DNA from: Eukaryota sp. GEM-RC1
Lineage: Eukaryota
DNA length: 64,000 nt
Reading direction: 5' to 3'
Assembly: GCA_040285855.1 (NCBI GenBank)
Contig: JAUFOQ010000002.1
Location: 620,001 to 684,000 of the forward strand
Positions 2,941-61,124 of this stretch are shown here, one piece after another. The notes under the pieces were generated by a model, which was not told the DNA's origin, searched no databases, and saw only the letters and a program-made list of their open reading frames with translations. The position numbers and the translations under genes are program-made. The stretch's first letter is position 1. Each line of letters starts with the position of its first letter.

Positions 2941-2942
2941 AA

Positions 2943-3335: not shown

Positions 3336-3709
3336 TAAATTTGCCGTAAATACTTTTAAAAAATATGAATAATGGTTGTACGTTATTAATTAACAACATA
3401 TAAACTAATAAACTACTATTGCTTAAAAGAGTCTTGCGCCAAAGAGTCTGATTAATATTTTTCCGTTGATCACGGCACAATTTTGAAAAAGCATCAAAAA
3501 AAGAACAACTAGAATTTTTTTACATCAAGATGTAACACAAGGCTGACTACACGTACACGTACATGTACATGTACTAGTTGTACATTACATCTTCTATGGT
3601 TGGACATTCACATTAATTTCTCCCAACTGTGGTTTTCACATCAATTGCATAATTTAGGTCTTCCCTACAAATGATACCACCATTGATAATACTTCACAGA
3701 TCTCTACAT
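3335..3709 (-). ncRNA. Candidate omegaRNA/3' end of Fanzor copy 1 element
   Basis: Directly downstream of the Fanzor stop codon; has a second conserved copy at 2403-2715; ends sharply against LINE sequence. Confidence 0.4.
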
Positions 3710-6700
3710 TTACATGCAGACTTTCTTGCTCACACTTCTAAGAGGAGCTATATGAACTTTAGCACTACAGTCTTCTGTTGATCCTGTTCCGTTCTCTTTT
3801 GTCTTCTGTTGATCAACAGTTTTTCTGTTCATCGGACAGTTCCTTTTGTCATGACCTGTCTCATGACACATTGAACACTCTCTCAAAATCTTTGAAATCA
3901 TCTTCTTTTCTTTCTTCTTCTTAGAACAAGATCTAGAATTGTGACCGACTTCGCCGCAGTTTGTGCATTTTCTTTTCTTCTTAATCGCCATTCCGTTCTC
4001 GAATTCATTTGTTTGAGATTTTTCTCTCTCAAGAACGGAAGGTCTACTTCTACCTTGGATTGCTGCTTCAATAATACTGTGAATGTTGATACCAGAGTTA
4101 AAGTCTCTGTTCCAGTATGTTTCACACGTGGCGCATCGCACTAAGCCCCATGGTGAAACCTTTGCTTCCTGGAGTTTGCTTTTTAATCCATCCTTTTCTT
4201 TTTCCCATTCATATTTAAAGTTTCTCTGATCTTTACCCAACAGTAATTTTTGGTTATACTCAACAACCTCTTTCTGAAGTTTCTTCTTTTTACGATTTAA
4301 CTTAATTTTCCAATTAGGGTCTCGGACTTTGTCATCTTTTAGGTTCGAGCAAAAGCCTTCTGTTCCAAGCAATGTGCAACTCGAACAGCATTTGCTAGTT
4401 CGATACTCATCGACTAGAAAAACTTGGTATCCGAATTTTCGGAAAAGTTCCCTCATAGATTTGCCTTTTACAAATGATCGTTTTCCAGTTCGTTTGGCTT
4501 TTCTAGAATCAATCCAATCACCAAAACCAATAATTACTTCTCCTGGTGATCCGAACTTTTGAGCAAAACGATGAAGCATATTTTGCTGACTCCTCTGATT
4601 GTTCAAGTATCTCTTCAGTCTCTGGCGTCGGAAAGACTTTTCTTCGTAAAATGTGCCTATCATAGCCCCATAAGCTTCTGTTTCTGTCAGATACAAACTG
4701 TACTTATCTACAAAGTACTTCTATTCTTTTGGTTACCCCGCAGAAGTGGTTGCGGGGTAACCAAAATGACGTAACCAAAAGGGTACTTACTTATCTGGGG
4801 TAACCGAATTTACCTGGCCAGAGGATACTCTGGAGCTGAAATTATCAGCAATTTCCTTGCCAGTCATGTGACGACCATTTACTGTGGTTGTGAATTTCAG
4901 AAGCTTTGAGGTTTCATCGTCAGGCTCTCTGACTTGCTCATTTGGTTGCTTGTTCTTTTTCTTTTTCTTGATAAATCTGCCTCTCTGGTCAGCAGTTCGT
5001 TCACCAGCTGTGTACCGGAAAATTTTCCAGCTGTGGCTTTTTTCAATTTAACTTTGGTGATTTCTTTTTTTCTTTTTGTCTCTTCTTTGAGTCTTTTCTT
5101 CTCTTTTTTGAGTCTCTTCTTCTCTTTTTGTATCCCCCCTTTCTTTTTGCAATTAATTTGTGAAAGCTGTTTAGATCGAGTCTTATTTGACAGGTCAAAT
5201 CCCTCTTGAATTTTTTCGCTCTCAGTTTTCGGACTAACACAAAAGATTAAATCGTGTTGGTTAGGATCAATTGCTACGATTTTTTTTGCCTGTGAGATTT
5301 AATTTAGTAATTTCTTCCGTTGTCAGAGAGTCCACATAGCGCTCTTCTGCAGCCAAGTCATTTGCTGAAAGATTTTTTCTAGGATTTCCATGAGAGTCCA
5401 ACAAATCCTTTCTTGTCATGAGCAGGGAAGTAGAAACACCATCCGTTGTAATAGAGGTAAAAGCAAAGTCATAAGATAGGGAAGTTGGAACTGATTTTGG
5501 TTTAAGAACAGTATTCCATAATTCCTTCCTTATTGTATCCATTTCTCCCTTGAGATCTGGTAAGAATCTCAATTGAAACCAGTTAGAGTCCAGTCTCACG
5601 TGACCAGGAATTAGTGATGACGTCACTGGAAAGGGATTGGTGACGGAGACATTATCACAGAATTCCTCAATCAGTCTGTTCAGATAGATTGCATGTGAAA
5701 GGAACTTAAGAGGGTTTACTTTTTAAGCATAGTATAATCCCTTTGGCATTTTCTTGTTTAATTGACATGTCAAGTAAGTCCTAAAAGCAATAGTTAACCT
5801 AGAATTGGTGTGAAAAATAGTTTGATCCTAAAAATCAATTAAATCAATTTGTCCGTTGACAATCAACTCTCGGATGCTGTTAAGCCGCTGAAAAAATAGT
5901 TTTCGTTCATCTTCACACTCAATTTTCATGGCTCTAGATTTTTTCTCTGTTACTAAGTTGAAGACTCGAAAGACATAGGAGTGAAAGTGTTTTGCCATAT
6001 TATTCTTGTAACTGGTGGAGATCTCAGTGGCCATGTAATCAAGTAGTCTGGGTAAGTACAAATTACTGGGGAATTTTACCATTTGCTTACCAGCAACTAT
6101 AGCAGCAGCGTTCAAAAGAGGAAGGAACTTAGTGAGTAGATGATTAATAAGTCGAATTTTAAGCAGATTCAAAGAATTGGATTTTTTTGCGACCTTTTTC
6201 AGGTCTTCTTGGCGTTCAAGGACAATCTGGCTCAAATGGTCAGATGAGCCGTCCTTTTGATCGTCATCAAAGATAACAAAACCTTCAGAGGTTTCTGATC
6301 CAGAATTTTCGAGTAATTTGGCAAATTACAATGTGTTCCCATAGAATCTTTAAATTTCAAATATTCACAGTCAAATTCGTGAATCAAAAAATGTTTTAGG
6401 AAGTGAGTTCCTCGAACTCTAACGTGGTGACTTCTTTTCACACACGATTCGATAACTTTGATTTTTGATTTTGTCACAACTTTGGTGAGTCTTCTTTTAA
6501 TCACCTTCATTGGAGATTTTTCTCTGATTTTCTGCTTGTTTCCATCAAACAAGTCACAAGCAATGAATTTTAACAGATGCAGGCGATCAATTGCATTTTG
6601 GAGTAAACGGGGTATTGTTGATGAAGCCTTCCAAAGGTCATTGATTGTTTTTAGTTCACTAGAACTTGTTAACCTAAACAATTGCTTTGCAGATAGTGCA

Positions 6701-7518
6701 GAAACATTATTTTCCGCTTTGAAATTAGCGATAGCTTCATCAATATTATACAGAGGATTGGTTAGAATTCGTATTAATTCGGAATTTTTCCAATTTTTTT
6801 GATCATGTTCCAACATAATTTGAGTTACGTTTTCCAAAAAGCGACCACCTTTAAATTTGTACAAGGATTTGCAAACTGAGTTTAAATCCAGGCAGTGAAA
6901 TGGACCAAAAGAGGACGTTTTGCACCATCTCTTAAACCATGTGGGTACATATGGAGTATATCCGTCAAATTGAAAATTAACATCAATCATCAAATGGTTG
7001 CATCTTGAAATCAAAAATGGAAAAGTGAACTTGTCACAGTTATATCCAATCAAAAGCTGTGGACGCATAGCTTTGAGAAATTCAATCAGATTAATCAGCA
7101 TCAATGTTTCTGAACTAAATCCATTGATAGAACAATCTTGAATATATAGTTCATGGCAACCCCAAGTAAAGAGATAAGTGTCGCCTTGACACCCAAGAGA
7201 CGAGCAAAATTCCATTGATACAGAAACAATGGAATCGTTACTTCCATCATAGGAAAACTCGTGTATTAGGTCTTTCACTTGTGGCCCTTGACAGTCTTCA
7301 TCATCACTGTCATGTTCCTCAGCGACCTCTGGATTGAGGCGATGGTCTTCAGAGATAATAGCTCTGATTTCCATAAAGCAAAATAATTTATCCAATGTCT
7401 GGATGTTTTGTGCTTTCAATGGAGTTGGAGATAGTTCCATTGAAAGGCGTTTCACACCTCTCATTGGATGAGGAGAAACAGGACCTCTAGCGCAGTTCAC
7501 TGACGGAAAGGGATTCAT
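3710..7518 (-). pseudogene. Decayed Fanzor1-like nuclease with N-terminal PolB exonuclease-like domain and two C-terminal CCHC knuckles
   Basis: RuvC motifs IVAIDPNQHD (D 5266-5268), FGDW, VDEYRTSKCCSSC (E 4406-4408), CATC..WNRDFNS (D 4103-4105). Collinear with 53990-57800. In-frame stops at 5828-5830 and 5723-5725, frameshifts near 6255, 5280 and 5040, and an 87-bp insertion at 4701-4796. Confidence 0.88.
4701..4796. mobile_element. 87-bp palindromic insertion with 9-bp direct repeat TACTTATCT
   Basis: Direct repeat at 4701-4709 and 4788-4796; internal 16-bp inverted repeat TTTTGGTTACCCCGCA/TGCGGGGTAACCAAAA; removing it restores ...SVTPDKYSLYLTETE... Confidence 0.75.
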
Positions 7519-9486: not shown

Positions 9487-9501
9487 ACTGAAATACATGT
9501 A

Positions 9502-10149: not shown

Positions 10150-10356
10150 ACTAATTTATTGTGAACAGACTACAGACTAGACTACAGACTTAATGATCAG
10201 ACTACAGACTAGACTAAGACTAAGTGAGTAGACTAAGATTTAGACTAAAAGCTTAGTCTAGTCCGTAGTCAGTAGACTAGTCTAGTCGAATGCCCAGCTC
10301 TAATCAGACCTTTATGCAGTGAAATTACAAACCTCAAAACATTTATATTCTTCTTC

Positions 10357-11583: not shown

Positions 11584-14500
11584 TTATTGTTCTACGGTGT
11601 GGCGTTTGGTTTTTTTGGAAATGGGGATTCTTGAATTTTTTCTTCTTTTGGTTTTTTTCTGAATCATCAATGTTACGCCAATGGTAATAGTTAAAGTAAT
11701 AATCATTATTACTAAAAACCAAGAATATTTCAATTTTGTCTCTTTTTCTAGTATGTTCTCGTCGATATTTAGTATTAAATTTCTATAAAAGTCTTCCTTT
11801 TCCACTCGAATTCTGTAACCAATCGTGAAATTACCTGGGAAATCGGAATAAATCACAATGCGACCTCGGCCGTCAATCACTCGACTGTTAACCGTTCTGA
11901 TTTTAGAACCAGGATCTCTTCCATTTACAGTCTGGAAAAAGCTCAATTCGGAAGGAATGTAGTCTGTAATCGTGATTGATTGGTGATTACGAGGGTCAAA
12001 ATGAGTATCGTCGAGAAGATTCACAGTCACATACTGATGGGCACGAACAGAGATTTTTAAATTTTTAACTGGGACAGGATTTGAAAGTGTTTTGAAAAAT
12101 AACAAAACGTATTGTAAATCATCAAAAGTACCAGAGTCGTCACCAAAATAATATGAAATAATTGAAAAATTTAAAACAGGTGGAACAAAATGTTGAGACG
12201 GAATAAAGACCAAATCATATATTTCAAAAATGTGGTATTTTTGACCTTCAACGACAGTTTTTTGATCTTTTGTTTGAACCATTCCTAAGTGATCTGGTGG
12301 CAACGAATTGAAGACAACAAAGATGCTCGACATTTCATAAGAGAATCGTTCAAAATTTGAAATATTGAAGAACGAAAGCTGTACTGACTGGGTATCCTTA
12401 ATGAGGTACTGAGAATAAGGCTGAGGTGCTGTTGACGTGATGAATTCAACATTTTTCAAATAATTGAAATATTCAAAAGATTGAGTTAGCATACTTGAAA
12501 CCGAACCTAAGAAAAGTTCTGACAAGAGCAAACTATTGTCATCTTGCAAGTTGTCCAAAATTTGAAAATTTGATACAATTCCGACAAAATGATTGGAAGT
12601 CAAATCTACAAAAGACTTTTTGATGAAAATAGCCAAATGAATAATTGGTTTGAGCTAACTTCATATCAACAAGGAAATTAATAACTTCGACATCGTTAAT
12701 CAAAATAGAGATCAGTTTGTAATCTGACTGAGGATCATTTTGAACCGAAACAACCATAAAAACCCATCTATGTAAAGGAAAAACGTAATCATTAGATGAA
12801 ATTTTTAAACAATCCCCATCATTTGAAATCACATTCAAAACCAATCGCCGATCATTCATTCCTTTACTATTTAAACTCAAAGAGAATCCACCAATGTCCA
12901 CGTCACATGTATGGCTGAATGAAGAAAGAAGAAGTTGAGATGAAGATGTGGATGAACTTTGTATCCAAAAGGAAAGAACAAAAGGACGATTATCACTCAG
13001 ATTCAGCAAGGAGAAGGACTTTGAAGAGAAAACAAGAGCTGAGGGGATTTGGAATCTCAACAGGGAGAAGAGAAGTGGAGATGTAGGTAGAGAAGAAGTA
13101 GAAAATGAGACATTGTTATTGAAGAGGTTGGTCAACTTCAGATCAATAGAAAAGTTGAAAGACGACAAATCAGCCAGTTGGTCACTGAAATTCAATTCGA
13201 ATCGATTTCGACCATCAAATACGGCTGGCAAAGGAAAAGTACTTGAATCATCGAAACGAATAAGGCAATCAAAGTCAAGATTATCTAGAGAAAGCAGCTC
13301 AAGACCAGTAACTTCAAAGGAATTAAATCCCAAAACTGAAAGATTTAAGACATAAACTTGAACAGGACCAATCGATTTTGATTGATTGTTGAGAGCAACA
13401 ACTGTAAGAGAAACTTCAGAGACATTTAAAATATTCGGAATCGGACATATCAACTCAGAACAAGACTTTACAAGACCAGTCGTTTGAAGCCCATTGAAAA
13501 AGCAAACAAACGAATCAGACAGATAAAAACCGGTTCCCTTGAAAGAAATGTCTTGAGTCGATGAAGTAACAATTTTGATATTTTGAGTCATGTTTACTGA
13601 AAACTCTGTTTCAAAATTGAATTGAATTTGACCTACAACGTCATCAAATCCATCAGTTAAAACAAATGATAGAGTTTCCGCTGCCAAACCACAATGGAAA
13701 TGAAAGGGAACGTAAATGATTGTAGGATCTTGACAGGAAGAAATAGTAAATGATTGGATTGATGACGTGGTGATTGACTTGATTGAGATCGGATCACGGT
13801 CAGGATCAAAATAGGTAGGTTTGATGATGGAATAACGGTCAAACTCTACAGTTACAGTCATGTTTTTGACTGATGGATTTTGATTGATTGTTTTGATTGA
13901 TGCCGAATAGGCAGCTGACGTACTAACAGCTCCATCAGAAAAGATTGATTGATATTCAAATTCAAAAATAGTGTCGATTGGCCATGATTGATTCATTTGT
14001 AACTGTCGGAAAGGCTCATAAAAGAGTTCACAACCGTCATCAGTCAGGTTTGATTTTGATCTATAGACGGGATACTGACAGTCCTGATCAATGTAAAACA
14101 ACCTTCCAAAAGAAGGCTGGTTAATAACCTTGATTGCATGAGTACAATCAGGAAATATCAATTGATTGCAACGATTTCTGATTGCAGTGAAGTTGATGTC
14201 AGTTGAAGGTACTGATTTGAATGACTCAAAATGACTGACACTTTTACAATGAATTGACTGATTTCCAAAACATAAAGAAACAGACGAATTTGGAAAGGAA
14301 ACGGGGTTTACTGTAGAAAAATCAGATTCACTGAAACAATCAATTATGATTGAATCTGTCTGGTTGACCAATGTGATGGCAGTCAGATTGTGGGATCCGA
14401 CGGAACAGAAAGGATGAAGACTTTGAAAGTATTGAAGGAAATCAAAGGACATTGAAATCAAGAAACAGGGAAAATCACAAGAATAGTCCACAGAAATAAC

Positions 14501-16240
14501 AGTGATTACGTCAATCATATCTGATTGCGATTGGATTAAGTGATCATGGGTTTGAAGTCGAAAAGTCCATTCACCTTCTAATTTAGGAGAATGACAACTA
14601 CCTCCAGAACTAGAAGGAATCAAATCTGATTGAATAACAATACCGTCACGAGTAAACACACATCCAAGATGGAGGTCATCACTCAAAGAGAAAACGATAT
14701 TAATAAAATCATCAGAGTCAAAAACGACTTTTAATTCAATCGAAATGGGAAAGTCATCATACGTAAACGTCACCATAATCGACACATTAGAGTGTGAATA
14801 TCCATCGGTAACTACGGCAATTACCTCAACCTTGGGAAGTGGAAAAACTGAAGGAGAAAACCTGAGAGAAATCGAGTGGAAATTGAGATTTGATTGATTG
14901 ACAGTCACGAAATTAGGATCATAGAAAAGATCAATCAGAGATAAAGGGTCGTTTTCCGGGTCAAAAACAAATTGGGAAAGATCTAGATTCATTACTTCCT
15001 GAATGGTAGCAATGAGCTCTATTTGATTGTGATAGGGAGAACCATTACGTGACTCAATCAATAGTGAGTGATTAACCACGTTCTTCCCATACAAATACAC
15101 CTCACAGACAACTTCCTCCCTGATATCTGGGCCTGACAGTGGAGGTTGATAAGTAACTTCATCATAGAGAGACAGATTAGTTCCAATCGGAGGGTTGAAG
15201 GTACCTGCAAGGAGAGAAGAAGATGAGAGAAGGAATGAAGAAGATTGGAGGTAGAGCTCAGTCAAAGTGGAGAGATTAAAAGAAAGTGATTGAGTGTGAT
15301 TGGTGTTCAGATGGAATTGATCTGAATCAGGAATAGAAATTTCAAATTTGACACAGCTTTGGTCCATTAACACATCATTTTTGGTAGAAACGCACAAACT
15401 GCCCACTCCAATGCTTACCATGGCAGGAAACACAAAAGAAGAAGACTTTGCATTGGGAAGAGGCTGTAGACGAAGTAAGTCAGAATCAATGGAGAGAGAA
15501 GCTTGTAGTAGATCATTTTGAAACAAGTTGTCCAAACCAATACCACTTAGTGAAACAACGCCACCTGTCATTGACAATGACGATGGAAAAGCATGAGAAA
15601 GTTCAAAAAGTTTAATGAAGATATTATCAGAAACGATTGTGTTATTAATGTAAACATCAACACATATTTTAGCTGAAAGATCACTAAAGTCGAAGAAGGA
15701 TAAGTGATATAAGGGATTTGGAATGGGGCATGATATTTGGACATGGTCAGAATGTCTGGAATATGAACCGGTAACGACATCACCGGTTGCTATGCAACCC
15801 AAACGACACGAAACATCACCAATGGGAACAGAAGTGGCAGGAAATACAACTTGGATTGCATCAGAATATAGAGCAGAAAGATAAGAAGAAACAGGCAGAG
15901 GAGATTCCACTATATGGAGAAGCGATGTTGTCCAGTACTCCATAAAAGTTCCATGATCAGAAACAATAACAAAAACAGGAGATGATGTGGGATTAGAAGT
16001 GATGCTGCACTTTATCAATGTCGAATTCAACAATAATGCTGGAAATGTCTGGCCTTTTATGGAACAAACTACTGAATCAACAGAAGTGGTCTGTTGCATT
16101 GGAATTTGACAGACCAGCTCTCCACCTGATGATGGTAGAATTGATGGACTGCAAGTTGCCTCTTTAGCGTGTGAAACCCAGAGCAGCGTAAGCAACACAG
16201 CTAAGACCGTGAATCTGACATTATAGTGAAGCAGTTGCAT
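11584..16240 (-). CDS. Large type-I membrane/surface protein with IPT/TIG-like, cadherin/Ig-like and LamG-like segments
   Basis: N-terminal signal peptide; C-terminal TM helix plus basic tail; SFWIQ...WVFMVV and DPDRDPISI motifs; two overlapping ORFs (~12540-12636) probably one gene. Confidence 0.6.
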
Positions 16241-22295: not shown

Positions 22296-22489
22296 TCACG
22301 AAGGAGAAATAATTTAAATTGGTCAAACAATTTGGGTATATCATCATTCAGCCAAATGGTGTTTAACTTCTATAGAGATATACTATTAATCAAGGGTTCT
22401 ATATTGAACATATCAGGTCCAGCACATGAATACCATTAACTTAGACATCCTTAAAGAATGCTTATTCTGAAAACTTCCTCTTGGAACAT

Positions 22490-22800
22490 TTCTGAACAAG
22501 GCAAACAGAATAGGTACAAAAAACCATTGTTGGCTCTGGAAACAGGTAAAAGCATGTTGAAAATGATTTATGTCCTTTTACTGTTTCAATCTATGTCTCT
22601 TCAGGAAAAAGTGCACTCATTTTGTTTGTGATTTCGGAAAAATCGTAAAAAGTGAAAGAACATACTCTTTAATCATACTAGTATGTTATTGTTGAATCGT
22701 ATTGTTTTTGCTGTTTTAAAAACAGTTCCCCTAGTCATCTCCAGAGCTTTACTAGCTGTGACTTCCTTTTATGAAGACAAAGCTGTTGTTTTAATGATTT
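22490..22800 (+). mobile_element. 3' fragment of RLE non-LTR retrotransposon
   Basis: LNRIVFAVLKTVPLVISRALLAVTSFYEDKAVV matches the C-terminus of 33390-34031. Confidence 0.8.
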
Positions 22801-22834
22801 CAAATTTCAGTTTTTCAGTATATCACATTTATAT

Positions 22835-22903
22835 AAAAAACGGGGTTTATGATCAATCAGAGAAAAAATTGATTTTGCAAAAATAATAACTAACATACAC
22901 TAA
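22835..22903. repeat. Short dispersed repeat (A-run)CGGG(G/T)TTTATGATCAATCAG...ACATACACTAA
   Basis: Further copies at ~25391-25463 and, partially, ~47349-47385. Confidence 0.7.
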
Positions 22904-31589: not shown

Positions 31590-31990
31590 TTTTCTTTTTT
31601 TTTAAATAACAAGTTTTATTGACAACAACACTACAGTGTACATACATCTAATAATCAATATCCTCAAAGTCCAGATTGCCTAACTGGAAATTTTCACCCA
31701 CCTTATCCTCATAATGTCTGCCAAGAGATAATAAAGCGCTAGATACAGAAGTCACCATACTTTTAAAGATAGCAAACACGATTCGATTTTTCCAAAATCT
31801 AAGATCAAATGTCCTAGATGTTTTTTCCTTTACAAACTTCACAAAGATTTCAAGTAATTATGTTGCAGATTCACCTAAAGAACCGTACAGTGAAAATACA
31901 AAAGGGTACAACAAGTAATTCGAGTGTGAAGCCGAATTCAATAATTTCAATTTAGCACAGTATTATTGCATTTTTCCGTTTTCTACATAC
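31590..31990 (-). mobile_element. 3' end of RLE non-LTR retrotransposon with A-rich tail
   Basis: PFVFSLYGSLG, FDLRFWKNRIVFAIFK; AATAAA followed by an A-run; inverted copy at 34655-34800. Confidence 0.8.
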
Positions 31991-32639
31991 CAAGTTTAGA
32001 TCGAGATTTCTACAAAAGAGCAACAACCTATAGACCAGGTTTAAGTAAAGCTTTTTCCCATGTTTGAGCACAGTATATCAAATAGAACTTAAACGGAAAT
32101 TGTAAAAATTCATTTTCAGAAATTTAATTGTATGGTCTTTACTTAAAAAAAAATTAGGAGAAGGCTAGAGTGATGCTTTGAAAGTCAAATGCAAAGTTAA
32201 TTTTAGTCATACTGTATGATTGTAGTGAGTGGAGATGAAGGTGTCTAATATATTGTTACTGAACCGTGTGAACTTCAACACGAATGTGTTGTCAGCGTTT
32301 TGACCAACAAAACAATGCATGGGTCCGTTTTTCCCACCAAAACACTCTGCGTTATCCTACTCAATCAAACAAAATTGAAAACTGTACACACAATTTACCG
32401 AAAGAAGTTAAAAGTTATTTCGCAAATGGTGGAAACGGAAAAAATAATGTCCAAAAATCCACATTCAGACAGTTAAATGACAGTGACTTGTATTTTTTTT
32501 CATGTTTTTGGAAATTGACCTTGAATTACAGGAATCAAAATTAGTGAAATCCATGAAATTCTCTGACAAGATAACCAAGGACCAAAAAAATCAAGACATT
32601 TTTAATAATTGATTTCATAGCCCAATACATGAAGATTAT

Positions 32640-33050
32640 ATATAACCATACATTTTCCAGTGAATATCTTTGAGGTTTGGGGTTTACATCTTCTAAATTG
32701 TGGGCTAAAACAGCCTTCATTGGTGGTGGAAAGAATTTTGTATTCGAGTTTTGTAATCGATATCCATCAAGAACTTCTCTACTTGAAAGTACTTGCAGCT
32801 TTTATCCTGTCTCCGTGGTGAAATAGGAAATCTTTCTCCTGAGTTTTGGTCATCCTGCTGTCCTGTTGATATCAAAGAAATTCCATGTCGAAATATTGTG
32901 TCCTTAAAATTTGCTTCAAAGAAGCTATATTAAAATATTTTGAAAGTTTAGATCATACAGTCCATCGTAGCTCGGCTAAGGAAAATAATCCAGTTTAGCT
33001 AATTGTTTAATTGATTTAAAGGAGAGTTCTGCTGTGGTATTAATTCATCA
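32640..33050 (+). mobile_element. Degenerate retrotransposon fragment
   Basis: Inverted match to 34160-34570. Confidence 0.8.
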
Positions 33051-33389
33051 AATTATTATCAAATGATGACCAAAATATATAAATAAAACTTATTCGGTAC
33101 CCAATACGGTAACCTTCCTACAAAACTATCCTTCAAGTTGCAAAAACAGACGAATAATACTAAGATTAAATCCAAACGACTTTATTATTTTATTGTATTT
33201 GTTTGTGTCTAAGTCTGGACATCAAGTTGCTGCATTGAATTCACGAAGACACAATAAAATCGTCTTTCAGCTTATTGCAGTTTCTATGTGTGCAAATTTC
33301 GGTTCTTCTACCAAGGAGTTTTTTGAAAATTTGTGTTCAGAATTTTTTTATGCAAATTGGTTTTATTATAAATGTAATAGATCAAACAA

Positions 33390-34570
33390 CTAAAATTTGA
33401 TATCATTAAAACAACACCCGTCGCTATCAAACCTTACAACAGCTTTGTCCTCATAAAAGGTACTCACTGTTAAAAAAGCTTTGGAAATGATTAGGGGAAC
33501 TGTTTTAAAAACAGTAAAAACGATCCGATTCAACCATAGCATATGATCAAAACGTTTGTTCATCCTGTTTTTTAAGATTTTTCCGAAATCGTTTAAGAAA
33601 ATCAATGCACTTTTTCCTAAGCGTCCGTAAATTGAAACAGCAAAAGGACATAATTGGTATTCAACGTGTTTTACATGTTTTAAAGCCATCAAAGGTTTCT
33701 TGTACTTATCCTGTTTGGCCTGTTCAGAAATGTCTAAAGGAGAAGTTTCAGACGAAGCGTTCTTTAAAGATGTCTTTTTACAAACATCCACTGACACTAC
33801 ATCAACAACAAACAATTTGTCTAAAGAAGAAGGGACAACAACATCTGCTCTTCTTTTACCAAAAAAATTCTTCTGTTTCTCGACATTACAATTATTACTT
33901 GGTTCTAAAGATCTTAGAAGTGGTTCAACAAATGACTCAATTTTATAAGACTTACACATAGCATGTATTTGGTCTCTTATAGCATCATGTATACACGTTC
34001 GATAAGTTATGTAGCGATTGCAACTTAACAAATGAGAAAACGTTAATTGTTGTCAACAGCTACATTGAAGATCATTTGGCAAATTATATGGCCATAAATA
34101 ACAACGAAGTCTCATTGTAGTGGTCCATAGATGATTTAATAACAAACCATATACTTGTGGAATTTGATTAATTAATGCCACAGCAGAACTCTCCTTTAAA
34201 TCAATTAAAAAATTAGCAAAAGCTGGATTTTTTTCCTTAGCCGAGCTAAGACGGACTGTAAAATCTAAACTTTCAAAATATTTTGATAAATGATTTTGTA
34301 ACTTTTTTAAAGCAAACTTTAAAGACAAAATGTTTCGACATGGAATTTCTTTGATATCAACAGGAAAGCAAGTTGACCATAGCTCAGGAGAAAGATTTCC
34401 AATTTCATCACGGAGATTATTAAGATAAAAGCTGCTACACTTGTAGTAATTTCAAGAAGAGAAGTTCTTGATGGATATCGATTACAAAACTCAAATACAA
34501 CATTCTTTCCACCACCAATAAAAGCTGCTTTAGTCCACCATTTAGAAGATGTAAATCCCAAACCTCCAAA
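33390..34570 (-). mobile_element. 5'-truncated RLE-type (CRE-like) non-LTR retrotransposon: Zn knuckle plus restriction-like endonuclease
   Basis: CSC..HLLSC, RTCIHDAIRD, RADV..VVDV, EQAKQDKY, PFAVSIYGRLG. Confidence 0.85.
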
Positions 34571-34654
34571 TCAGAATTTGGCAAGAAGTTTAACAGATCG
34601 TACTGGAAGACTAAATTTGCTTTTTCGATTTTTAGGTATATGTATAGATATGTG

Positions 34655-34800
34655 TAGCGCTTTATTATCTCTTGGCAGACTTTATGAGGTTAAGGTAGGT
34701 GAGAATTTCCAGTTAGGCAATCTGGAATTTGAGGATATTGATTATTAGATGTATGTACACTGTAGTGTTGTTGTCAATAAAACTTGTCAATTAAAAAAAA
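34655..34800 (+). mobile_element. Severely 5'-truncated retrotransposon 3' end with poly(A)
   Basis: Near-identical reverse complement of 31595-31742. Confidence 0.8.
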
Positions 34801-43029: not shown

Positions 43030-43031
43030 TA

Positions 43032-43909
43032 CAGTAAACTCTCTCTAATTGCAACCTCTGTAATTGAAAACTCTCTGAATTTGCAACAAAAACCCATGCC
43101 ACCGGGTAAAACAATACCAAATTGAAAATTGAAACAATTGAAACACTTTTTGAGACCTAATTGAAACATTGAAGTCAAAGTTATGCTGTATTCTAGTTGT
43201 CGCATCTATAGCTAGCTGCCATATATTGATGTTAGTGTGGAGAAAGAGGAAGACGTTGTCGTTTTTCATAAATCCTACAGTACTCTTCTGGTTTTTCCCA
43301 TCATCAACTTCAATATACCGTACACAGTACTGAACATCAACCAAAAGTCAAATACAAAAGCATGCTCGTCAATATTTTAATGATGATGAAAATACAGAAA
43401 CTGTAACTGCAGAACCGTTCCTCAAAAACAGAACTGAATCATTGTTTGAGAATTTTCTCCAATTGTGTTCAAATACATTAGTTTAATGACTTCACTGCTC
43501 TAAATCAAGTGATGATAGATCTTCCAGTAGTGCTGGGGAAAAGAGGGAGAAACATTGGTTCATTTTTTTGTCACCCTTACGAAATATCAACGACACACTG
43601 TCTGTGTACCATTGTATAATGAGTACTGTCGATATTAAGTAAAAGTCTTTTTTAAAAAGCGGGATGATTAATTTGAGTCAAACTAATAACATTTGTTTAA
43701 GTCCGAGCATTCTTGGTAGTTGTTTTGTGGATCAGACATGTTAATTTGCTCTTGCACACTAATTAATAACATATTTGATGTTCTGGAATACGTGTGGATG
43801 TTGTATTTAGTTTAGGGTAGATTTATAGGAACTCTCTGTAATTGAAAACTCTCCGTAATTGAAACGAAACTCCATTCACCAAGTCGTTTCAATTAGAGAG
43901 AGTTTACTG
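43032..43909. mobile_element. pogo/Tc1-mariner-type MITE
   Basis: 20-bp TIR CAGTAAACTCTCTCTAATTG flanked by TA on both sides. Confidence 0.9.
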
Positions 43910-43956
43910 TAGCAGAAATTGTCCCTCTCCAAAAACCATTAGTTCCTTCTTTTCTT

Positions 43957-46669: not shown

Positions 46670-47207
46670 AATCACTGTGTTTAGTGTCATTTTCGATGTC
46701 GGTCGAATTATGTATATCTTTTTGATCTGCGATATGTTACTTGAACAACACGGTTGTATAATTGAACTCCGTAAATTAGGAGACGACCCAAATACAGTTA
46801 AACAGAAGGCAACTAAATGTATACAACTAAATATTCAAAACTGACTAAATAAACCAACACCATTCATTTTACTCTGGGTCAAAAGCTGCAGATTGCCATA
46901 AAAATCTGAAACCAGAGATTAATTTCCATAGTGTTTTAGTTCTGTAAATTTGTTTTTGTAATTATTTTATCGTAATTCATAGAACCAAAATTGAAAATTA
47001 ATCGGGGCATTAACTTTTAGATAGCCATGGTTCAAACTTCAAACGACCATTGTCAAAATCATCAGGACGGTTTTCCCCTGTCTGATTGAGATTGATGTCT
47101 GTCAATAAGCAATTTTTCCTCGATTTAGCGTGACCCTTGATTAAAGGTCTAAAAAAAGGTGACAGTTAATCGTGGAACAATTGTATGAACATGTACGGTG
47201 CTTAAAA

Positions 47208-47865
47208 CAGGGATGTTAAAAAATATATTTAAATAAATATAATATTGTGTGGGTTTACAATAAATATATTGATATTGTCAAATTTGACAATAAATAAATA
47301 AATTTATTGCCAATATCTCTTCGGTAACTCTAGTACTAGTATAATGTAGAAAAACGGGATCTATGATCAATCAAAGAAAAAAATTCTAATGAAGTGATAC
47401 AGTCTATTCTTCGTCCATTACATCCCCATTTTGGTGCAACAAATCTGGACTGGAGAAAAATTCTTCGAGTAGTATTTTCATGTCAAAGTTGCGAATTGTA
47501 CAGTAAAAGTAACTGTTTCTCAAGGCTTGAAGGGTGCAAACGTGATCGAAGAGTGCCAGTAGTAAGCATTGTACGACTGAACAATCTTTCGAACAACTAA
47601 AATCATTAGTCATTTTGATTCATAACAGTATGATCAACTGTTTGTATCATATTTTACAAAATTGAGACAACGTTGTACGAATTGTTTGAAGAAAGTTCGA
47701 TATTTGCAAATGAAAACACGACAATTTGGCATGACAATATAGTGTCACAATATTGAAATATATTGAAATACTATTGCATATTACCGATTGAGACAATAAA
47801 TATATTGGTGATCCAACTGTTGACAATAAATAAATAAATAAAAAATATATTTTTTAACATCCCTG
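47208..47865. mobile_element. hAT-type MITE
   Basis: TIR CAGGGATGTTAAAAAATATATTT; 8-bp TSD GCTTAAAA (47200-47207, 47866-47873). Confidence 0.92.
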
Positions 47866-48115
47866 GCTTAAAATATATGTTTAAGCTGCTCTATTTCTAG
47901 TACAGCACTGCCATATATGTTTTCTGATTCTACATTAGAATTGTCTCAAAACACCTACAGTTAAACAGAATGCAATCGTACAATGATTATCTGACTTGAA
48001 AAGAAAAGCAGTTATTTGTACAATAATGATTAGAGACAATACACACAGAATATGATTCGATTGGAGGAATGCTGTTTGTTGCTCAAGTCAAATTTTCTTA
48101 CCAAACACTTCGTTA

Positions 48116-53734: not shown

Positions 53735-53989
53735 ACAAGATTCTAAAGACTCTTTAGTATCGAGGGAAATGTTAGCCTTCTCTTTAGTTAAAAGAAGGCT
53801 AAGATGTCCTTTATATTCCAATTATTTTCAACTAAATTATTGTTTACTATTTTTTTCTTTATGCTTCTACTACTGTGAATTTCATTCCAAATGCATAAGG
53901 GCATAACCCTTCAGCATTTTCATGAGATAAACCACAGTTGACAAAGTCCTCATTCGCAAAGTCTTTTAAAACGAGCTAACTTCATAGAT
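53735..53989 (-). ncRNA. Candidate omegaRNA of Fanzor copy 2
   Basis: Three stem-loops (53743-53757, 53772-53802, 53889-53919) just downstream of the Fanzor stop codon; boundaries unknown. Confidence 0.45.
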
Positions 53990-56900
53990 TCAAGATTCCT
54001 GATCTTTCTGGTTTACGTGTGAGTCCTTGGGTACATCTTTCTTAGGCTTATTTGGACAAGTTGTTTTGTTATGTCCAGGTTGAGAACATATACGACACTT
54101 GTTAGGACCTCTGACAGTTGTTGGAGGACGTTTTGCCTTACCCTTACCCTTACTCACAGTCTTTTTCTTAGGAATCTGATCTGTATTCCCGCCATCCACG
54201 ACAGGTGTTGTTTGAGATTTTGGTCTCTCGAGGATGGCAGGTCTACCTTGACCTTGAATGGTTCCATTTACAATATTGTAAATATTGATAGCAGAATTGA
54301 AGTCTCTATTCCAGAGGACATGACATTTAGCACATTCAACTAAGCCCCATGGTGAGACTTTGTTGTTCTTCAATCTTTCTTTCGAAAATGGCAACTGGTC
54401 AGTCCATTCTTCATCAAAGTTACGCTCCACAATATTGTCTAAGTGATTGTGTTCCATAATTTCCTTTTTTAATTCTTTCTCTTCCTTCTGTAACTTCTTC
54501 TTCCAATGAGGATCAGTGACTTTTATCCTTTCAGGATTGGAACAGATACCTTCGTCGTTTGTGGAAACACATGCAGAGCAACATTTGCTGGTCTTAAATT
54601 CATCAACTAGGAACACTTTAAATCCAAATTTTCTCAATAATTTCCGAATTGAAGCACCTTTTACAGTCGATGCTTTACCTCTTCTTCGACGAAAAGCAGT
54701 GTCGTTCCAGTCTCCATACCCAACAACGACTTCATCTGGGTTTCCAAACTGGAGAGCAAATCTGTGAAGCATGTTTTTCTCACTTCGTTCCTTTCTTGAA
54801 TACTGTGTGAGACGATTCCGTCTAAACCACTTTTCTTCGTAAATTCCTTCTGTAGTTCTTTGATCAGTAGTGGGTGATCGTAGTAAAGAACAGGTAATTT
54901 CTTTACCAAGAACAAAAGCAGAATACTGAGTCAATTCACAAGATTTACTACCTGGCGAGTTAGAGCCCCATTGATCTAAAATTTGTTGCCCATTTATGTC
55001 AATGCGTCTGCCATCTGGAATGTGAATAAATTGGGTAGAGTATTGTTGTAACCGTTCAGATTCAGATAAACGGTGGAGATTATATCGTCTTATTTTCTTC
55101 TCCAGCTTCCTCTTCTTTCTCTTAGCTCTTTTTCTTTCCTTCCTTGTTTTTTTCTTTTTCCATGGAGACTTTTTAATATCGGCATTGCGTTCCCCAGCAG
55201 TGTATCTGAATACTTTCCAATTGTCTCGATTTTTCAACTTGACAGTTGATGGTTTGTCAATAGTGGGTGCGTCTTTCCAATCCTTCAATTCCTTTTTTAA
55301 TTTTTTCAAGCTTCCTTTTTTCTTTGACGATTTTGGACAAATCTTTCTTCTTCTGAGATTGGCTGATGTATCGAAACCTTCGATTTCCTTTTCCTCCTTA
55401 GATTTTAAAGAAGCACAATACATCAAATCATGCTGATTAGGATCAATAGCAACAATTCTTTTTGATTTCAAATTTAAGTTTTGAATTTCTGTGGAACTCA
55501 AAGAATCAATGTACCTTTCAGTAGCTGTGTAGTCAACAGCTTTCACCTTCTTATGAGGATTTCCTTTCCCATCAAGCAGATCTTTCCGCATCATTATTAA
55601 ACTACAACTAACTCCATCTGTAGAAATAGAACTGTATTTGAAGTCATGAGACAATGACTTTGGAAGACACTTTGGTTTCAAAACTGAGTGCCAAATATCT
55701 TTTCGAACGTCATCAAAGCTTCCTTTAATTTCTGATGCATAAACTTCTTTAAACCATGTAGTATCCAATCTGATATGATTAGGAATCAATGATTTTGTTA
55801 GAGGAAAAGGATTATTGGCAGTAACACCAGGACAAGAGTCTTCAACAAGACGTTTCAAATACACTGCATGACTTAAGAATTTCAAAGGATCTACTTTTTC
55901 AGCATAATAGATTGATTTCTCCATTTTACCTTCAAAAAAAGTAAACAAATAGTTAAAAAATAGTAAACTCAGTCTAGACTTGGGATCAGGAAACACTTCA
56001 ACATCTTGAAAATTAATTTTTGAAACTTCCCCATTAATGATCAACTGTCTGATTTCATTAAGCTTTGTACACAACTCTTGTCGTTGATTCTTATCACTAA
56101 GCTTGTTAAGTCTATCTTTTTCAGGGTAACCAAATTAAATACTTGAAAAACATATTCGTGAAAGTGTTCACACATGTTGGTCTTGTAATTTGTAATAATT
56201 TCTGTTCCCATGTAATGCAATATACGAGATAAACGATGACTACTGGGAAACACAATCCTATCAAGTCCAACGGAATCAGCAGCTAGTTCTAAACGAGGAA
56301 TGTAATGCATCAAGAAGTGTTGAGCAAACTGATTTTGAGTTGAGCCATCATTTGTGTTAGAAATTATGTTTTCTAAAGATTCTTGTACAGTCCTAATATG
56401 ATTCTGATTGTTTACAAGTTTGTAGTCCCTAATCGTCATCATAGACAACACTTGTTCCATTGATTTCAACGTAAAAAAATTGTTCCAGTCTGACAATTCA
56501 ATTTTGTAAGTTTGAATTCTAGTCCAAAGGTCAGGTTCAGGTTCACCACTCGCATCTTCAATATTTTCTAATTTAATAGGAGGAGTAGCAGCATCGATAG
56601 ACTCTGAATGTACATCTGTTTCTTCTTCAGTTGACTCATCTGTATCAGAATTCATTTCTTCCTTAACAGTTACATTTGGAACAGTAGCAGGCAGTAACTT
56701 CTGAATGTAACCTAAAATACCTGAATGTTGAAAATTATGAACAAAAAAATGTTTCAAAAGAGAGAACCACGGACTCTTACTTGATGAGCTCTCTTAACAC
56801 GAGATTCAATAAATTTAACCTTCGCTTTGGATACAACATTGTCTAGTCGTTTCTTAACCACTTTCATTGGTGACTTTGAACGTAATGTTTGCTTTTTGGG

Positions 56901-59033
56901 ATCCAATAGGTCAGCCAACAAGTATTCAATCAGAGGTAATTGTTGAATTGAGTTCATCAACAATAGCGGTCTTGTCGATTCCTTGGCCCAAAGTTCATTT
57001 ACTTTCTCCAAATTTTTTACAAATTTCTTTTTAATCTTATCGACCTTCACTTTGGGATTGTCTGGAACTAAAACATTAATACTGTCAATTATGCCATGCA
57101 AGTTTTGGACATTATTGACCAATTGAACTTCATCAGGATCAGAGTCATGATTAAGATCTTCCAAGCGTTTGACAGTTTCATTTTTAGAAAAATTATTCAT
57201 TTCAAGAAAAATTTGAACAACATTTTCCAAAAAACGGCCACCAGTAAAGACATAAAAATTCTTCAGTACAGCATTCAAATCAAGACTAAAAAACGGACCA
57301 AAAGTTGTTTCCTTACACCATTTGTTGAACCAAAAGGGAATGTAGGGTTTAAATTCTGGAAAAGTAAACGTTGTATTGATTTTGAGGACTTGACAACGTG
57401 ATACAAGAAAGGGAAATGTATCTAAGTGAAAGTCATAACTCACAAACAATCGTGGACAATGTTGAGTAATGAAGGAAATGAAGTTTTTAAGCATACTGGA
57501 TTCACTATCTGAAATATGTAAAGTACACAAATCCAAGTTTGTAGTATCAAAATTGCCATGAGAAAATAAATGCTTTTCATTAAACTCATTGTGATCAATG
57601 ATCTGGATGGAAATTGATACAATCGGATCAACAGAAGAATCACGTTTAACTTCTAATTGATCTTCAGCTTCACCTTCAACAGTTTCAATGTCATCATCAT
57701 CTTGAACAAGTTGAACATTTTTGCCATTAATTCTTTCTGAATTGTCAAAATCACTTTGAACGTCAATCAAACAAAAAGCTGGAAGATTATTCCAAAGTAG
57801 AGGGGATTTAAGAAAGTCTTGAATTTGTATTTCTTGTTCGATAGGCTCAGTGTGTAGATTTACTTCCATTTTATGGATTTCTTCTTGAATTGGTGATGGA
57901 TACGACATAATGGAGGCATGTGATTTTGGTGGTAGTTCAGATGGTGGTACTTCAGATGGTGATGGAGCTAATTCAGATGATGGTACTTCAGATGATTCCA
58001 ATGTGGACATACGGCGGTGAGTCTTTCGTATTGGAGTGTCACCAGTTGAAACAAGGGAGCTGGTAGTTCTAAATTTATTTCGTTGAATTAAAGGTGAACC
58101 TCGTGGTGATGGAATATCAGAAATTTTGGGCTTACTTTTTTTAGTGCTAAAACCAGTAGATGTTTTAGTGCTAGCAAGACGTGAACCTGTGAGAGGAATT
58201 GAAGTGGTTGGATGTTCTTTACCGGCAGGAGGTTGAATGGGTAACGATGGTTCAATAGGAGCTACTGTGGTTTGACGTTGTTGTAGATAAAGTGTCCTTT
58301 GTTGAGACAATACATCCCGAATTTTTTCACGAAATATGTCTGCTTGAAGTTCATTGTTCACTTGGACCAAATAAGTTTCCAAATACATCAGAGACGGAAC
58401 ATACGTGAGTCTTTTAAAAAGTTCAACATATTTTTGAATATACGCAATGACATAAACTCCACAGTCGTTAGCAGACTGTGTTTTAGTCACAGGCACATAA
58501 CGGAAAACATACCCCCATGGCACAAGTACTTCGGATAATATGTCTACAGCTGATTTTACCATAGACTTACTCATATCTTCGCTAGTTAACATTGGATCAA
58601 TGAAGATCCAATCCTTTTCAGAACAGTCTATAATGGCTAAACCCCAATGATAACCAGTGACACCTTCTCTGGAATAATTAGCATTTCTAGTCATGGTATC
58701 ACTAAGGGGAACAAAGAGATATTTGGAGTTTGTTCTTTGATTTCGCTGAATTTTCGTCAACAACCATTGATCTAGCGGGGCATCTGGTGAAACAATATAT
58801 TGAAGCAATGTGGTCGGATGGATAAACATGCTTTCAAAGTCTAACTCTGCTTCTTGAAATATCACTTTACAGTACTCCACTATCGCTTCGTCATCAACCC
58901 ATTGATGAGGATAAACTGAGTTTATGGCTTCTTGAGTTACGGGTCCTGGATTGGATTCAATATCACCATCAGCGGTGAGGTCTTTTGGGAACGGAGGATG
59001 GGAAGGGATAAACAGGGGAGACGAGTACTTCAT
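53990..59033 (-). CDS. Giant multidomain Fanzor1-like protein: 2A - Ulp1 protease - degenerate PolB exonuclease - Fanzor - CCHC knuckle (~1,680 aa)
   Basis: IVAIDPNQHD (D 55442-55444), YGDW, VDEFKTSKCCSAC (E 54599-54601), CAKC..WNRDFNSAINI (D 54302-54304), CRICSQPGHNKTTC. Adding one base to homopolymers near 56757 and 56118 joins three ORFs and restores alignment with copy 1; no in-frame stops. Confidence 0.88.
58941..58964 (-). other. 2A-like ribosomal skip (StopGo) motif DIESNPG-P
   Basis: KDLTADGDIESNPGP exactly matches D(V/I)ExNPGP. Confidence 0.85.
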
Positions 59034-59070
59034 GGCAACAAATGTATGTGTTGATAAAACACAGAATGAA

Positions 59071-59443
59071 CTGTCCTTATCTAAACTCAACTGAGCCCGA
59101 AACCGTGCAATGGAAACAGTCACAAGTTGAGTCAGATAAGGACAGGATGGCGGCATTATCGAAGCAACAGAAGTGGAGGCAGTGGAGGGAAAGAACTGTC
59201 CTTATCTAAACTCAACTGAGCCCGAAACCGTGCAATGGAAACAGTCACAAGTTGAGTCAGATAAGGACAGAATGGCGGCATCATCACAGCAACGGCAGTG
59301 GGGAAAGCAACGGCATTCATCACAGCAACGGCAGTAGAGGGAGAAGCAACGGCAGTGGAGGGAAAGAACTGTCCTTATCTAAACTCAACTGAGCCCGAAA
59401 CCGTGCAATGGAAACAGTCACAAGTTGAGTCAGATAAGGACAG
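59071..59443. repeat. Three identical 75-nt hairpins
   Basis: Units at 59071-59145, 59196-59270 and 59369-59443; stems CTGTCCTTATCT/AGATAAGGACAG and ACTCAACT/AGTTGAGT; linkers built of GCAACGGCAGTGG-like repeats. Confidence 0.93.
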
Positions 59444-59598
59444 GATGGCGGACAACATCTGTTTGGATGCAGAACAAACGACATTTATACTGTAGGAGGA
59501 AGGAAAATGAAATCCCACACAGACTGTAATGGACATGTGTGTGTGAATTCACGTGTTAAAAAACGAAATCTGTAATAAAGTCTATACCAGAATTTCCC

Positions 59599-61124
59599 AT
59601 GTCCTACTCAATCTTCAAACTCAGAAATACTTCTGAACAAGAAAGTCGTTCCCGTACCATCAAAACATATATGAAACTTGTTGTAAAGCTTGCTGATAAG
59701 CATGCAGTTAATTTGTCACTTGTTCTTCTTCCTTATGGAACATACAATTCATGGAGAACTAAATCCATCCACATAACGGAAGTGTCAACATCTGACTTAC
59801 CAGATGATCTTAAAAAGGGTACCATGGATTTTTGCCTCAGCTACAAATCAGCCGTTGCCATTGTGCTAGATGTTGATCTAGAAACTGTTCATCTCTTTCC
59901 TTTTGATGGTTCTTATGAGAAGCGTGACATATCTCTTCCACTTCCTTCAACAACTTCAACTCTAAATCATCTTAAGGATCTACTCAAAGACGTTAAAGGA
60001 GATACAATTGCTCTTTCCCCTCCTCCTCCTCAGCCTCAATCTCCTGCTCTTTTACATGATTGTGACATTACTCGCATTGACGATACTCCATCTCAAGTCG
60101 TTTTTCCTTCACCAAAACGTCGTATTGATAACTTCGCAATCAATCATATTCATTCTATTTTCTCTGAACCATCTGAAATAGTTCCTGTTCCAGTCAGTGA
60201 TAATGCTAATTTATCTAAACCTATGAAACGCAAAAAACAACGTAACCCGTTGATTCTTTCTGTAGATTTAATCAGTGATCAGTTTTACATAAATTCAAAA
60301 TTAAAATTTGAATTTAGTGATATTGAGAAAATGTTGACAAAGGATGATAGGGAAGGTAAAACACAACTCTTGTTGAGTTCTGAACTTGATTTCATTGTGA
60401 TGCTTGCATTCCAAAAATTTAAATCAAGTAGGTACAAGTTCCTGCAATCTCAAGAAACTCAACAGTTGGTTGGTGATCCAATATGCTATGCCTTACATTC
60501 TGGTAAGGCTATTGTCGATACACTAAAATCAGGAAAAGAATTCTTGCCCCATTATGTTTGGTGAAAGAACATGTTCCTGGTGATGCAGGATCTGGTCATT
60601 GGATTCTTATTGAATTGTTTCTTAATGAAGCAAATGTTTTATTATTCAATATTTATGATTCTTTGGATTATTCATTAACCACAGAATTAATCGTTAATCC
60701 TTTTAGAACTGTTTATGGATGTGGGGAAACAAATCTGTTTGCAAGATTACCAGAGTATAAGGTGGACTACTATATACCTTTTGCACAGTCAACATCGTCT
60801 CTTATCTGTGGATGGATTGTCTGTTTGAATGTTACTTTAATTTTACAAGGATTAATGGTTGATGCACGTCAGGAACAAAATCAGACAAAATTATACACTA
60901 ACAGATCAAGAAAAAATCTATGTCTTGTTATGTATGATCTACTTCAGAGTGTACAACCTGATTTGGTGACAGAACAAAATGTAATTGATGGTTCAACAAC
61001 AAAATTTGATAACAAATCGTTGAAGACAGAAGACGAAAATGAAGTTTTAGGGAAAAAAACAGGAAAACGAAGAATTAAAACCACTGCAAGTGCTTTTGGA
61101 ATCAAAAAGACTTTAAAAAAATGA
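59599..61124 (+). CDS. Ulp1/SENP (C48)-like cysteine protease
   Basis: One T added near 60545 gives FFAPLCL...GHWILIEL...IYDSL...AQS...ICGWIVC. Confidence 0.7.

Follow-up and report, generated by a model that had tools for sequence, protein, structure and literature searches.

Described Systems Related to the Locus

Fanzor1 (SpuFz1, PDB 8GKH; PpFz1, PDB 9CF0) and the gene family described here have in common a RuvC D-E-D triad, a eukaryotic host, occurrence in multiple copies, and an open reading frame (ORF) without a transposase. Members of the present family are larger, at approximately 1,400-1,500 aa in the TZLM3-RCL genome, and longer with a protease in GEM-RC1, compared to 423-728 aa for the Fanzor relatives listed in our searches. 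They add to the Fanzor1 plan an N-terminal 2A-like peptide, an optional Ulp1-type protease, a family-B DNA polymerase (PolB) exonuclease domain, and a 79-aa insert in the zinc finger, and the two copies studied here also have a CCHC knuckle tail. The exonuclease domain shares its fold and motif order with that of the DNA-primed family-B polymerases (Pol delta, Pol epsilon, and the archaeal and giant-virus PolB enzymes), and the motifs are intact in TZLM3-RCL. It differs from these enzymes by the lack of a polymerase domain, by an acidic insert of approximately 45 aa after ExoI, by the family-specific motifs W..RW...GPF and FKGGR, and, in the two copies studied here, by a probable loss of activity.

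Engineered Cas9-TREX2 has a comparable anatomy, in which an RNA-guided endonuclease is joined to a DEDD 3'-5' exonuclease; the TREX2-SpCas9 fusion is said to chew the ends of the cut and to block their re-ligation. The present family, in contrast, is natural and eukaryotic, is built on a TnpB/Fanzor scaffold, and carries an exonuclease derived from PolB. In homing of the T4 td intron (I-TevI), the 3'-5' proofreading exonuclease of the family-B phage polymerase (43Exo) was reported to affect homing efficiency after the endonuclease cut (PMC2988022), but there the exonuclease acts in trans from the phage polymerase, whereas here it is fused in cis. Non-LTR retrotransposons (Ingi, L1Tc, L2, CR1, and Rex1) were described as carrying a 2A-like motif close to the beginning of a single long ORF (PMC3708506); the present family differs from them in that its ORF has no APE or reverse transcriptase domain by Pfam. 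DnaQ-like accessory domains are mentioned only in LTR retrotransposons in the portion of PMC6338049 that was consulted.

Look-ups in the main texts of seven publications (bioRxiv 2023.08.09.552727, PMC10530073, PMC3627910, PMC10432273, PMC13565253, PMC10691335, and PMC11423790) gave neither a mention of an exonuclease nor a natural Fanzor fusion; supplementary tables may list these proteins. Among the titles and opening lines of abstracts listed in literature searches, there was no description of such a fusion. The family is a Fanzor1 with a new domain architecture, for which no report was found in the literature searched.

The Window and Its Source Organisms

The window, which is the whole 64,000-nucleotide stretch of GEM-RC1 DNA that was analyzed, contains two Fanzor-like loci on the minus strand, at 53990-59156 (copy 2) and 3710-7518 (copy 1). 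A Pfam scan of 18 window sequences, a selection of the ORFs, identified the host genes Rpb3, coatomer beta', INO1, and a proteasome alpha subunit, indicating that the DNA is eukaryotic, and an eIF4A3-like helicase was identified from its sequence. GEM-RC1 and TZLM3-RCL are Skoliomonas metamonads from soda lakes, and their assemblies, built from Nanopore reads and corrected with Illumina reads, were reported to be 48% and 28% repetitive, respectively (PMC11316075). Two of five conserved host genes inspected, the eIF4A3-like gene (~10690, plus strand) and INO1 (~35960, plus strand), each lack a single base in a short homopolymer, a sign that the assembly still contains indel errors.

Several other elements of the window were observed. 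An ORF of 1,233 aa at 12539-16240 (minus strand), with weak TIG/Ig-like matches, probably encodes a surface protein. Long nested inverted repeats, with arms that are 88-95% complementary, lie at 31590-34800 and 22470-22890, where the repeat family to which they belong is also present in additional copies. Two pairs of short inverted repeats, of 29 and 26 nt and with 600-830 nt between the members of a pair, are present at 47202-47871 and 43030-43916 and are MITE-like.

Identity of the Exonuclease Domain

Both window copies carry a 3'-5' exonuclease domain of the family-B DNA polymerase type, with the DnaQ fold, and this identity, proposed in the first-pass annotation, is now confirmed. The domain was mapped to 56886..57785 in copy 2 (minus strand), by Pfam, the ESM Atlas, alignment, AlphaFold, and structure searches, and to 6520..7389 in copy 1 (minus strand), by Pfam and alignment; the two are 37% identical. 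The Pfam model DNA_pol_B_exo1 scored 30.1 bits with copy 2 (E 4e-7) and 40.2 bits with copy 1 (E 3e-10), compared to a cut-off of 23. In the ESM Atlas, every row listed was a PF03104 cluster, and the first match was to PF03104 at 0.95. The copy 2 domain had been placed correctly at 56930..57790, but reaches approximately 45 nt beyond the lower of these bounds, to ~56886. The motifs that had been quoted for both copies were found at their site in copy 2, but the literal strings belong to copy 2 only, and their counterparts in copy 1 read DSIVSVSM, ETLMLINLIEFL, GYNCDKFTFPFLISRC, and LDLN..LENV.

Structural comparisons gave the same answer as the profile matches. An AlphaFold model of the domain, made with a 31-row alignment, had a pLDDT of 82 and a pTM of 0.83; this alignment held 23 PolB domains, so that the model leans towards the PolB fold, and the pLDDT was 36 when the two window copies were used alone. 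VIA-align superimposed the model on residues 309-685 of human Pol delta with a Z score of 17.7 and an rmsd of 3.1 Å over 194 residues. Among 48,161 chains, 18 PolB chains ranked first (Z 17.7-13.2), followed by other DEDD nucleases at Z 12 or less, and the top Foldseek match of the domain model was yeast Pol delta (E 6e-7). The outcome that the first-pass annotation had named as refuting its reading, no DnaQ or PolB-exonuclease match by profile or structure, thus did not occur. The polymerase domain PF00136 was absent after the exonuclease in P0003, P0023, and P0024.

Catalytic Residues

All 23 PolB sequences in the alignment have D/E, N/D, and Y/D at the six columns of ExoI, ExoII, and ExoIII. 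In copy 2, these columns read D/Q in ExoI (codon starts D57764 and Q57758, minus strand), D/T in ExoII (D57434 and T57419), and N/Q in ExoIII (N56954 and Q56942), with one of the four metal-binding acids kept. In copy 1 they read E/R, N/T, and N/R; the first acid is a Glu and the other three are lost. The ExoI Asp of the window's copy 2 is itself atypical, as 11 of the 12 copy-2-type proteins that span this column have His there. Two other motif assignments were considered and rejected. The sequence DIET (~57692, copy 2), which was chosen as ExoI by HMMER and by one MAFFT run, sits in the acidic insert, and was discarded because the strand FCLIDVQS is homologous to FVSFDVET in all subfamilies. 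The sequence YLLAD, 10 residues downstream of ExoIII and favored as ExoIII by one alignment run, was ruled out by spacing, since an ungapped distance of 30 residues to the KxVK strand fixes the ExoIII register at N...Q.

The census of relatives revealed the same loss throughout GEM-RC1. Twenty-eight of its proteins were examined and 25 span a motif; the ExoI Glu was kept in 0 of 20, the ExoII Asp in 0 of 22, and the ExoIII Tyr/Asp in 0 of 13, and the lost acids were often replaced by Arg or Lys. In TZLM3-RCL, 11 of the 12 proteins examined span at least one exonuclease motif, eight span all three, and the motifs were intact (DxE, N..D, and Y...D) in all 11. None of the six motif residues has been lost in either of two TZLM3-RCL subfamilies, although these are only 35% identical in the exonuclease core. 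The motif columns and the census thus bear out the claim that catalytic residues were lost, and from its sequence the window domain is, with high confidence, predicted to be catalytically dead.

Fusion to Fanzor1 and State of the Window Genes

The region downstream of the exonuclease in copy 2 (53990..56873, minus strand) was identified as Fanzor1 by Pfam, a PDB search, and motifs. It begins with an N-terminal strand at 56873, has its RuvC residues at 55444 (Asp), 54601 (Glu), and 54304 (Asp), and contains a C4 zinc finger, split by the 79-aa insert, and the C-terminal CCHC knuckle. In the PDB search with the C-terminal part, SpuFz1 (E 2e-15) and PpFz1 (E 1e-10) were the only matches below E 0.01, and the TnpB zinc-finger model PF07282 scored 33.5 bits (cut-off 26.3). 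The RuvC D-E-D residues were found in copy 2 and in TZLM3-RCL proteins within IDPNQ, DEFKTSKCC, and WNRDFN, and the Glu lies six residues before the zinc finger, where it is placed in Fanzor1 (PMC13565253). All residues of the Bao and Jurka motif, D-X(125,275)-[TS][TS]-XX-C4-X(5,50)-RD, are present; with 283 aa, however, the first spacer exceeds by 8 the upper limit of the published range of 125-275 (PMC3627910). The Fanzor1 of copy 1 (3710..6516, minus strand), identified by sequence and alignment, still has legible RuvC motifs.

The joint between exonuclease and Fanzor is in frame in both window copies, and both are broken further downstream. Copy 2 has two frame shifts, each one base short, at a T run (~56760) and an A run (~56120). 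Copy 1 has three one-base breaks in A runs (~6255, 5285, and 5040), two in-frame stops (~5829 and 5724), and an 87-nt hairpin insertion; because of these defects, and since neither a 2A motif nor a protease was found when every frame upstream was searched, it is a pseudogene. The insertion itself (4710-4796, minus strand) forms an 18-bp hairpin (z -5.4), has a 9-nt direct repeat at its ends, and represents a very small mobile element.

The one-base breaks of the window copies are likely homopolymer assembly errors, given the same shortfall in the eIF4A3-like and INO1 host genes and given that GEM-RC1 protein P0015 passes the first break of copy 2 in frame. At the second break of copy 2, the frame was lost in all five copy-2-type sequences that reach the A run, whereas the sister GEM-RC1 subfamily reads through this site in four of four (P0109, P0110, P0112, and P0114), and P0110 spans from the end of the exonuclease to RuvC-I. 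A systematic base-calling error is the likely cause of the ~56120 shift, and some room is left for an inherited or programmed -1 shift. Introns were rejected as the cause of the breaks, as GT-AG choices tried by eye fail to restore the frame, and so was stop-codon reassignment, as host genes terminate in TGA, TAA, and TAG.

Relatives provide further evidence for the fusion. The distance from the ExoIII Tyr column to the KxVK strand of Fanzor is exactly 30 residues in 6/6 proteins checked, across subfamilies, indicating that the joint is constrained. The match to a profile made from 95 stand-alone Fanzors starts at profile position 7-10, exactly at the end of the exonuclease. P0023 and P0024 of TZLM3-RCL (1,473 and 1,491 aa) contain PF03104 and PF07282 in one chain, and in six of the 12 TZLM3-RCL proteins examined a single ORF of 1,394-1,494 aa includes the complete set of Exo motifs together with the complete set of RuvC motifs. 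The fusion is, therefore, almost certainly real, as had been claimed; the window supplies the in-frame joint, and it is the relatives, rather than the window alone, that show single ORFs extending to RuvC.

Upstream Domains and Flanking Sequences

Three copies of a 113-nt unit with a strong hairpin (fold z -5.8 and -5.2) lie on the 5' side of copy 2 (59064..59474, minus strand). The units differ in number and sequence between relatives and are partly translated as a variable leader in the relatives' gene models, in which leader lengths differ across P0006-P0021. The 2A consensus is D(V/I)ExNPGP, and a 2A-like ribosomal skipping motif, GDIESNPGP, was found in copy 2 at 58941..58997 (minus strand); TZLM3-RCL proteins have DVEANPGP or DIEKNPGP at the same place, and the six complete TZLM3-RCL ORFs all contain the peptide. 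In the copy-2 subfamily, as in both TZLM3-RCL subfamilies, the motif lies ahead of the enzymatic part, and a skip at this position is predicted to free a fixed N-terminus from the variable leader.

The 2A-like motif is followed by a cysteine protease of the Ulp1/C48 type (approximately 58290..58934, minus strand; Pfam match 58742-58422), with the residues His170, Asp187, and Cys232. The Peptidase_C48 model PF02902 scored 25.4 bits (cut-off 20.7) with copy 2, and the protease is present with an intact triad in copy-2-type proteins, while Pfam found no match to it in P0023 or P0024 of TZLM3-RCL. A low-complexity linker rich in Ser and Pro (57786..58289, minus strand) leads to the exonuclease. 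In P0053, a family member from GEM-RC1, the exonuclease is preceded by two segments that resemble proteases, and the second of them contains DLTADG, like the start of the 2A region. A gene at 59599-61124 (plus strand), head-to-head with copy 2 and split at ~60530, may belong to the same element; its second piece is Ulp1/C48-like in the ESM Atlas (0.93, with recognition below threshold) and has no Pfam match.

Approximately 250 nt past the stop of copy 2 (53740..53995, minus strand) fold better than shuffled sequences (z -3.0 and -3.4), and this structured region is a candidate omegaRNA scaffold. It showed no similarity to the 3' flank of copy 1, and more generally the non-coding flanks of the two copies share no similarity. 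An Rfam scan returned two weak matches, neither of them relevant, and left the hairpin units and the 3' region unmatched. The 25 longest pairs listed included no terminal inverted repeats that would enclose copy 1 or copy 2, and no Rep or helicase of the Helitron type was matched by Pfam in the 18 window sequences scanned. The hairpins on either side and a CTAA 13 nt past the 3' hairpin are only suggestive of a Helitron/Helitron2 trait.

Around copy 1, two related units lie approximately 920 nt apart downstream of the gene (1770-3600), and their middle part matches a repeat at 33841-34220. A duplicated 155-nt piece after copy 1 was considered as a guide array and rejected, being poorly folded (z 0.7 and -0.1) and part of a larger repeat with a spacing of approximately 920 nt. 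Directly upstream (8320-10290) is a hAT-like fragment flanked by 31-nt tandem repeats (8360-8500 and 10160-10250), in which 9502-10155 resembles by motif what we take to be the C-terminus of a hAT transposase, and an inner element at ~8550-9480 has GAGCCGGCT-rich ends.

Relatives, Phylogeny, and Selection

A profile built from the two window copies found three matches among 5,356 candidates (511-2,000 aa), all from GEM-RC1 and 95-98% identical over the domain, with clusters of 11, 6, and 1 members. A search with the Fanzor part found two matches among 4,367 candidates (1,251-3,570 aa), P0023 and P0024, both from TZLM3-RCL. No full-length GEM-RC1 protein was found in the profile and Fanzor-part searches, nor among the matches listed in a search with Fanzor at near length. 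A HMMER search of 1.84 billion representatives gave 57 matches, of which the top eight (E 6e-17 or better) came from GEM-RC1 and TZLM3-RCL, and the other 49 had E values of 2e-9 or worse. Pfam scans of 46 of these 49 revealed the exonuclease in 46, the polymerase domain in 38, and the TnpB model in none. In the near-length Fanzor search, 120 of 239 matches were listed, eight from GEM-RC1 or TZLM3-RCL and 112 others of 423-728 aa; among the matches listed, PF03104 was on record in none of the 112. No related DNA loci were found in the viral contigs and metagenome contigs searched.

Many copies of the family are 94-96% identical and lie on different contigs. The dead-exonuclease lineage has expanded, with clusters of 11, 6, 5, and 26 members, and at least five members of the copy 1 subfamily were listed. 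The window copies are thus members of a Fanzor1 gene family that occurs in multiple copies in Skoliomonas-type metamonads. In a tree computed from the core on the RuvC side (289 columns and 105 sequences, without a Fanzor2 or TnpB outgroup; two GEM-RC1 fragments and 12 other matches were dropped for lack of anchors or length), the five Skoliomonas sequences fell into one clade (FastTree 0.999). The suggestion of a distinct Fanzor subfamily was therefore supported, but the defining feature of the subfamily is not the dead domain, since the ancestral form, which still exists in TZLM3-RCL, is intact.

In the exonuclease tree (42 sequences, 188 columns; 13 of 49 PolB matches dropped), the four dead forms were united (UFBoot 93) and nested with the intact P0116 (100), with the intact P0023 outside. 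As the dead clade is nested among intact forms, the simplest history is a single capture with a single later loss. The attachment of the family to a donor PolB was unsupported in this tree (39 and 34).

In the exonuclease core (144 codons), copies 1 and 2 differ with a pN of 0.40 and a pS of 0.83, a ratio of 0.48 [0.38-0.59] in which synonymous sites are saturated; the shuffled baseline for pN was 0.72. The Fanzor regions gave pN/pS values of 0.42 and 0.42. When the ExoI insert, the second insert, and the ExoIII helix were taken alone, the intervals reached 1 and the ratios were not significant. The idea that the domain has been retained under selection is borne out by the ratio of the core, which is near that of the Fanzor regions, and since both window copies lie inside the dead clade, we infer that the selection between them acted on a dead domain.

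Proposed Function and Alternatives

By homology to SpuFz1 and PpFz1, the Fanzor part would make an RNA-guided cut, and the many near-identical copies on different contigs suggest that the element is mobile. The cut made by SpuFz1 was mapped after base 16-17 on the non-target strand and after base 20-21 on the target strand (PMC10432273), so that Fanzor1 cuts 16-21 nt from the TAM. Restorative homing has been proposed as the process that such systems drive (PMC13565253). With the element right after the TAM, the 3' end on the TAM side would carry approximately 16 nt that are unpaired with the element-containing donor. This tail would have to go before synthesis, and an intact exonuclease would trim it, so that the element could be copied from the trimmed end into the empty site. 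Analogies for such trimming come from family-B proofreading domains, namely the T4 43Exo in intron homing and yeast Pol delta, which was reported to resect as much as 40 nt of a 3' end after its invasion; counting against the proposal, the pol3-01 mutant showed no change in correction bias in that assay (PMC10868807). The dead form was probably kept as an end-binding or structural module, and Arg or Lys at the former metal positions would fit direct phosphate contact.

We give a probability of roughly 0.55 to the reading that the ancestral, intact fusion trims a 3' tail for homing, and that in the window lineage, after a single loss of catalysis, the domain still serves to bind ends or as part of the structure. 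The cut-and-trim mechanism, with an intact fusion and a retained dead module, is held at between somewhat below and slightly above even odds. More tentative is the version in which a natural eukaryotic cut-and-trim Fanzor1 applies its captured proofreading domain in cis to its own RNA-guided break and so biases repair in favor of copying the element, and one lineage later turned the domain into a metal-free end clamp and gained a SUMO-type protease. Catalysis is not needed for spread, as all 112 of the 112 listed non-Skoliomonas relatives are stand-alone and the dead lineage has expanded.

The exonuclease folds of Pol alpha and Pol zeta are inactive, and by analogy the domain might, in every lineage, serve the Fanzor N-terminus only as a structural appendage or scaffold, the intact residues of TZLM3-RCL being unused at the cut. 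The fixed 30-residue joint, the success of the dead lineage, and the conservation of the core after catalytic loss, nearly at Fanzor's own level, would all follow from such a role. However, the six motif residues kept by two TZLM3-RCL subfamilies that are only 35% identical are hard to explain without selection on catalysis, and this makes the appendage an improbable account of the family as a whole.

Alternatively, the exonuclease might make the cut destructive, by chewing the ends, blocking re-ligation, and leaving the targets (empty alleles, rival elements, or viruses) mutated or deleted. PolB exonucleases act on single-stranded DNA 3' ends, and the anatomy is the same as that of the engineered Cas9-TREX2 fusions. 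This is judged less probable still, as selfish spread accounts better than defence for an arrangement that is multi-copy and has expanded recently.

A further proposal, to which we give little credence, is that the domain acts on RNA, trimming the 3' end of a read-through transcript to the mature omegaRNA guide, and binding the guide when dead. Fanzor guides were reported to be 3' extensions of 14-15 nt (PMC13565253), and among proteins with DEDD folds are RNases as well as dead forms that bind RNA, which were listed at the lower Z of 9-10. The 18 best structural matches are, however, all PolB DNA exonucleases (Z 13-18), and other Fanzors mature their guides without an exonuclease domain. Hardly credible is a passenger role, as a functionless polymerase fragment or, were the ~56120 break real, an adjoining gene usually untranslated with Fanzor, for although that break recurs in all five copy-2-type sequences and copy 1 is a pseudogene, the exonuclease core is under purifying selection, TZLM3-RCL has single ORFs, the sister GEM-RC1 subfamily reads through in four of four, and the eIF4A3 and INO1 host genes show a one-base shortfall of the same kind.

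Implications for Fanzor Biology

Homing is the leading idea of what Fanzors do for their elements in eukaryotes. The fusion makes this idea directly testable, because nature offers both an intact version of the exonuclease, in TZLM3-RCL, and a dead one, in the window. If ancestral trimming for homing, followed by a single loss of catalysis in the window lineage, is true, these proteins would be a natural counterpart of the Cas-exonuclease fusions made by engineering, and editors that change the outcome of repair might be derived from them.
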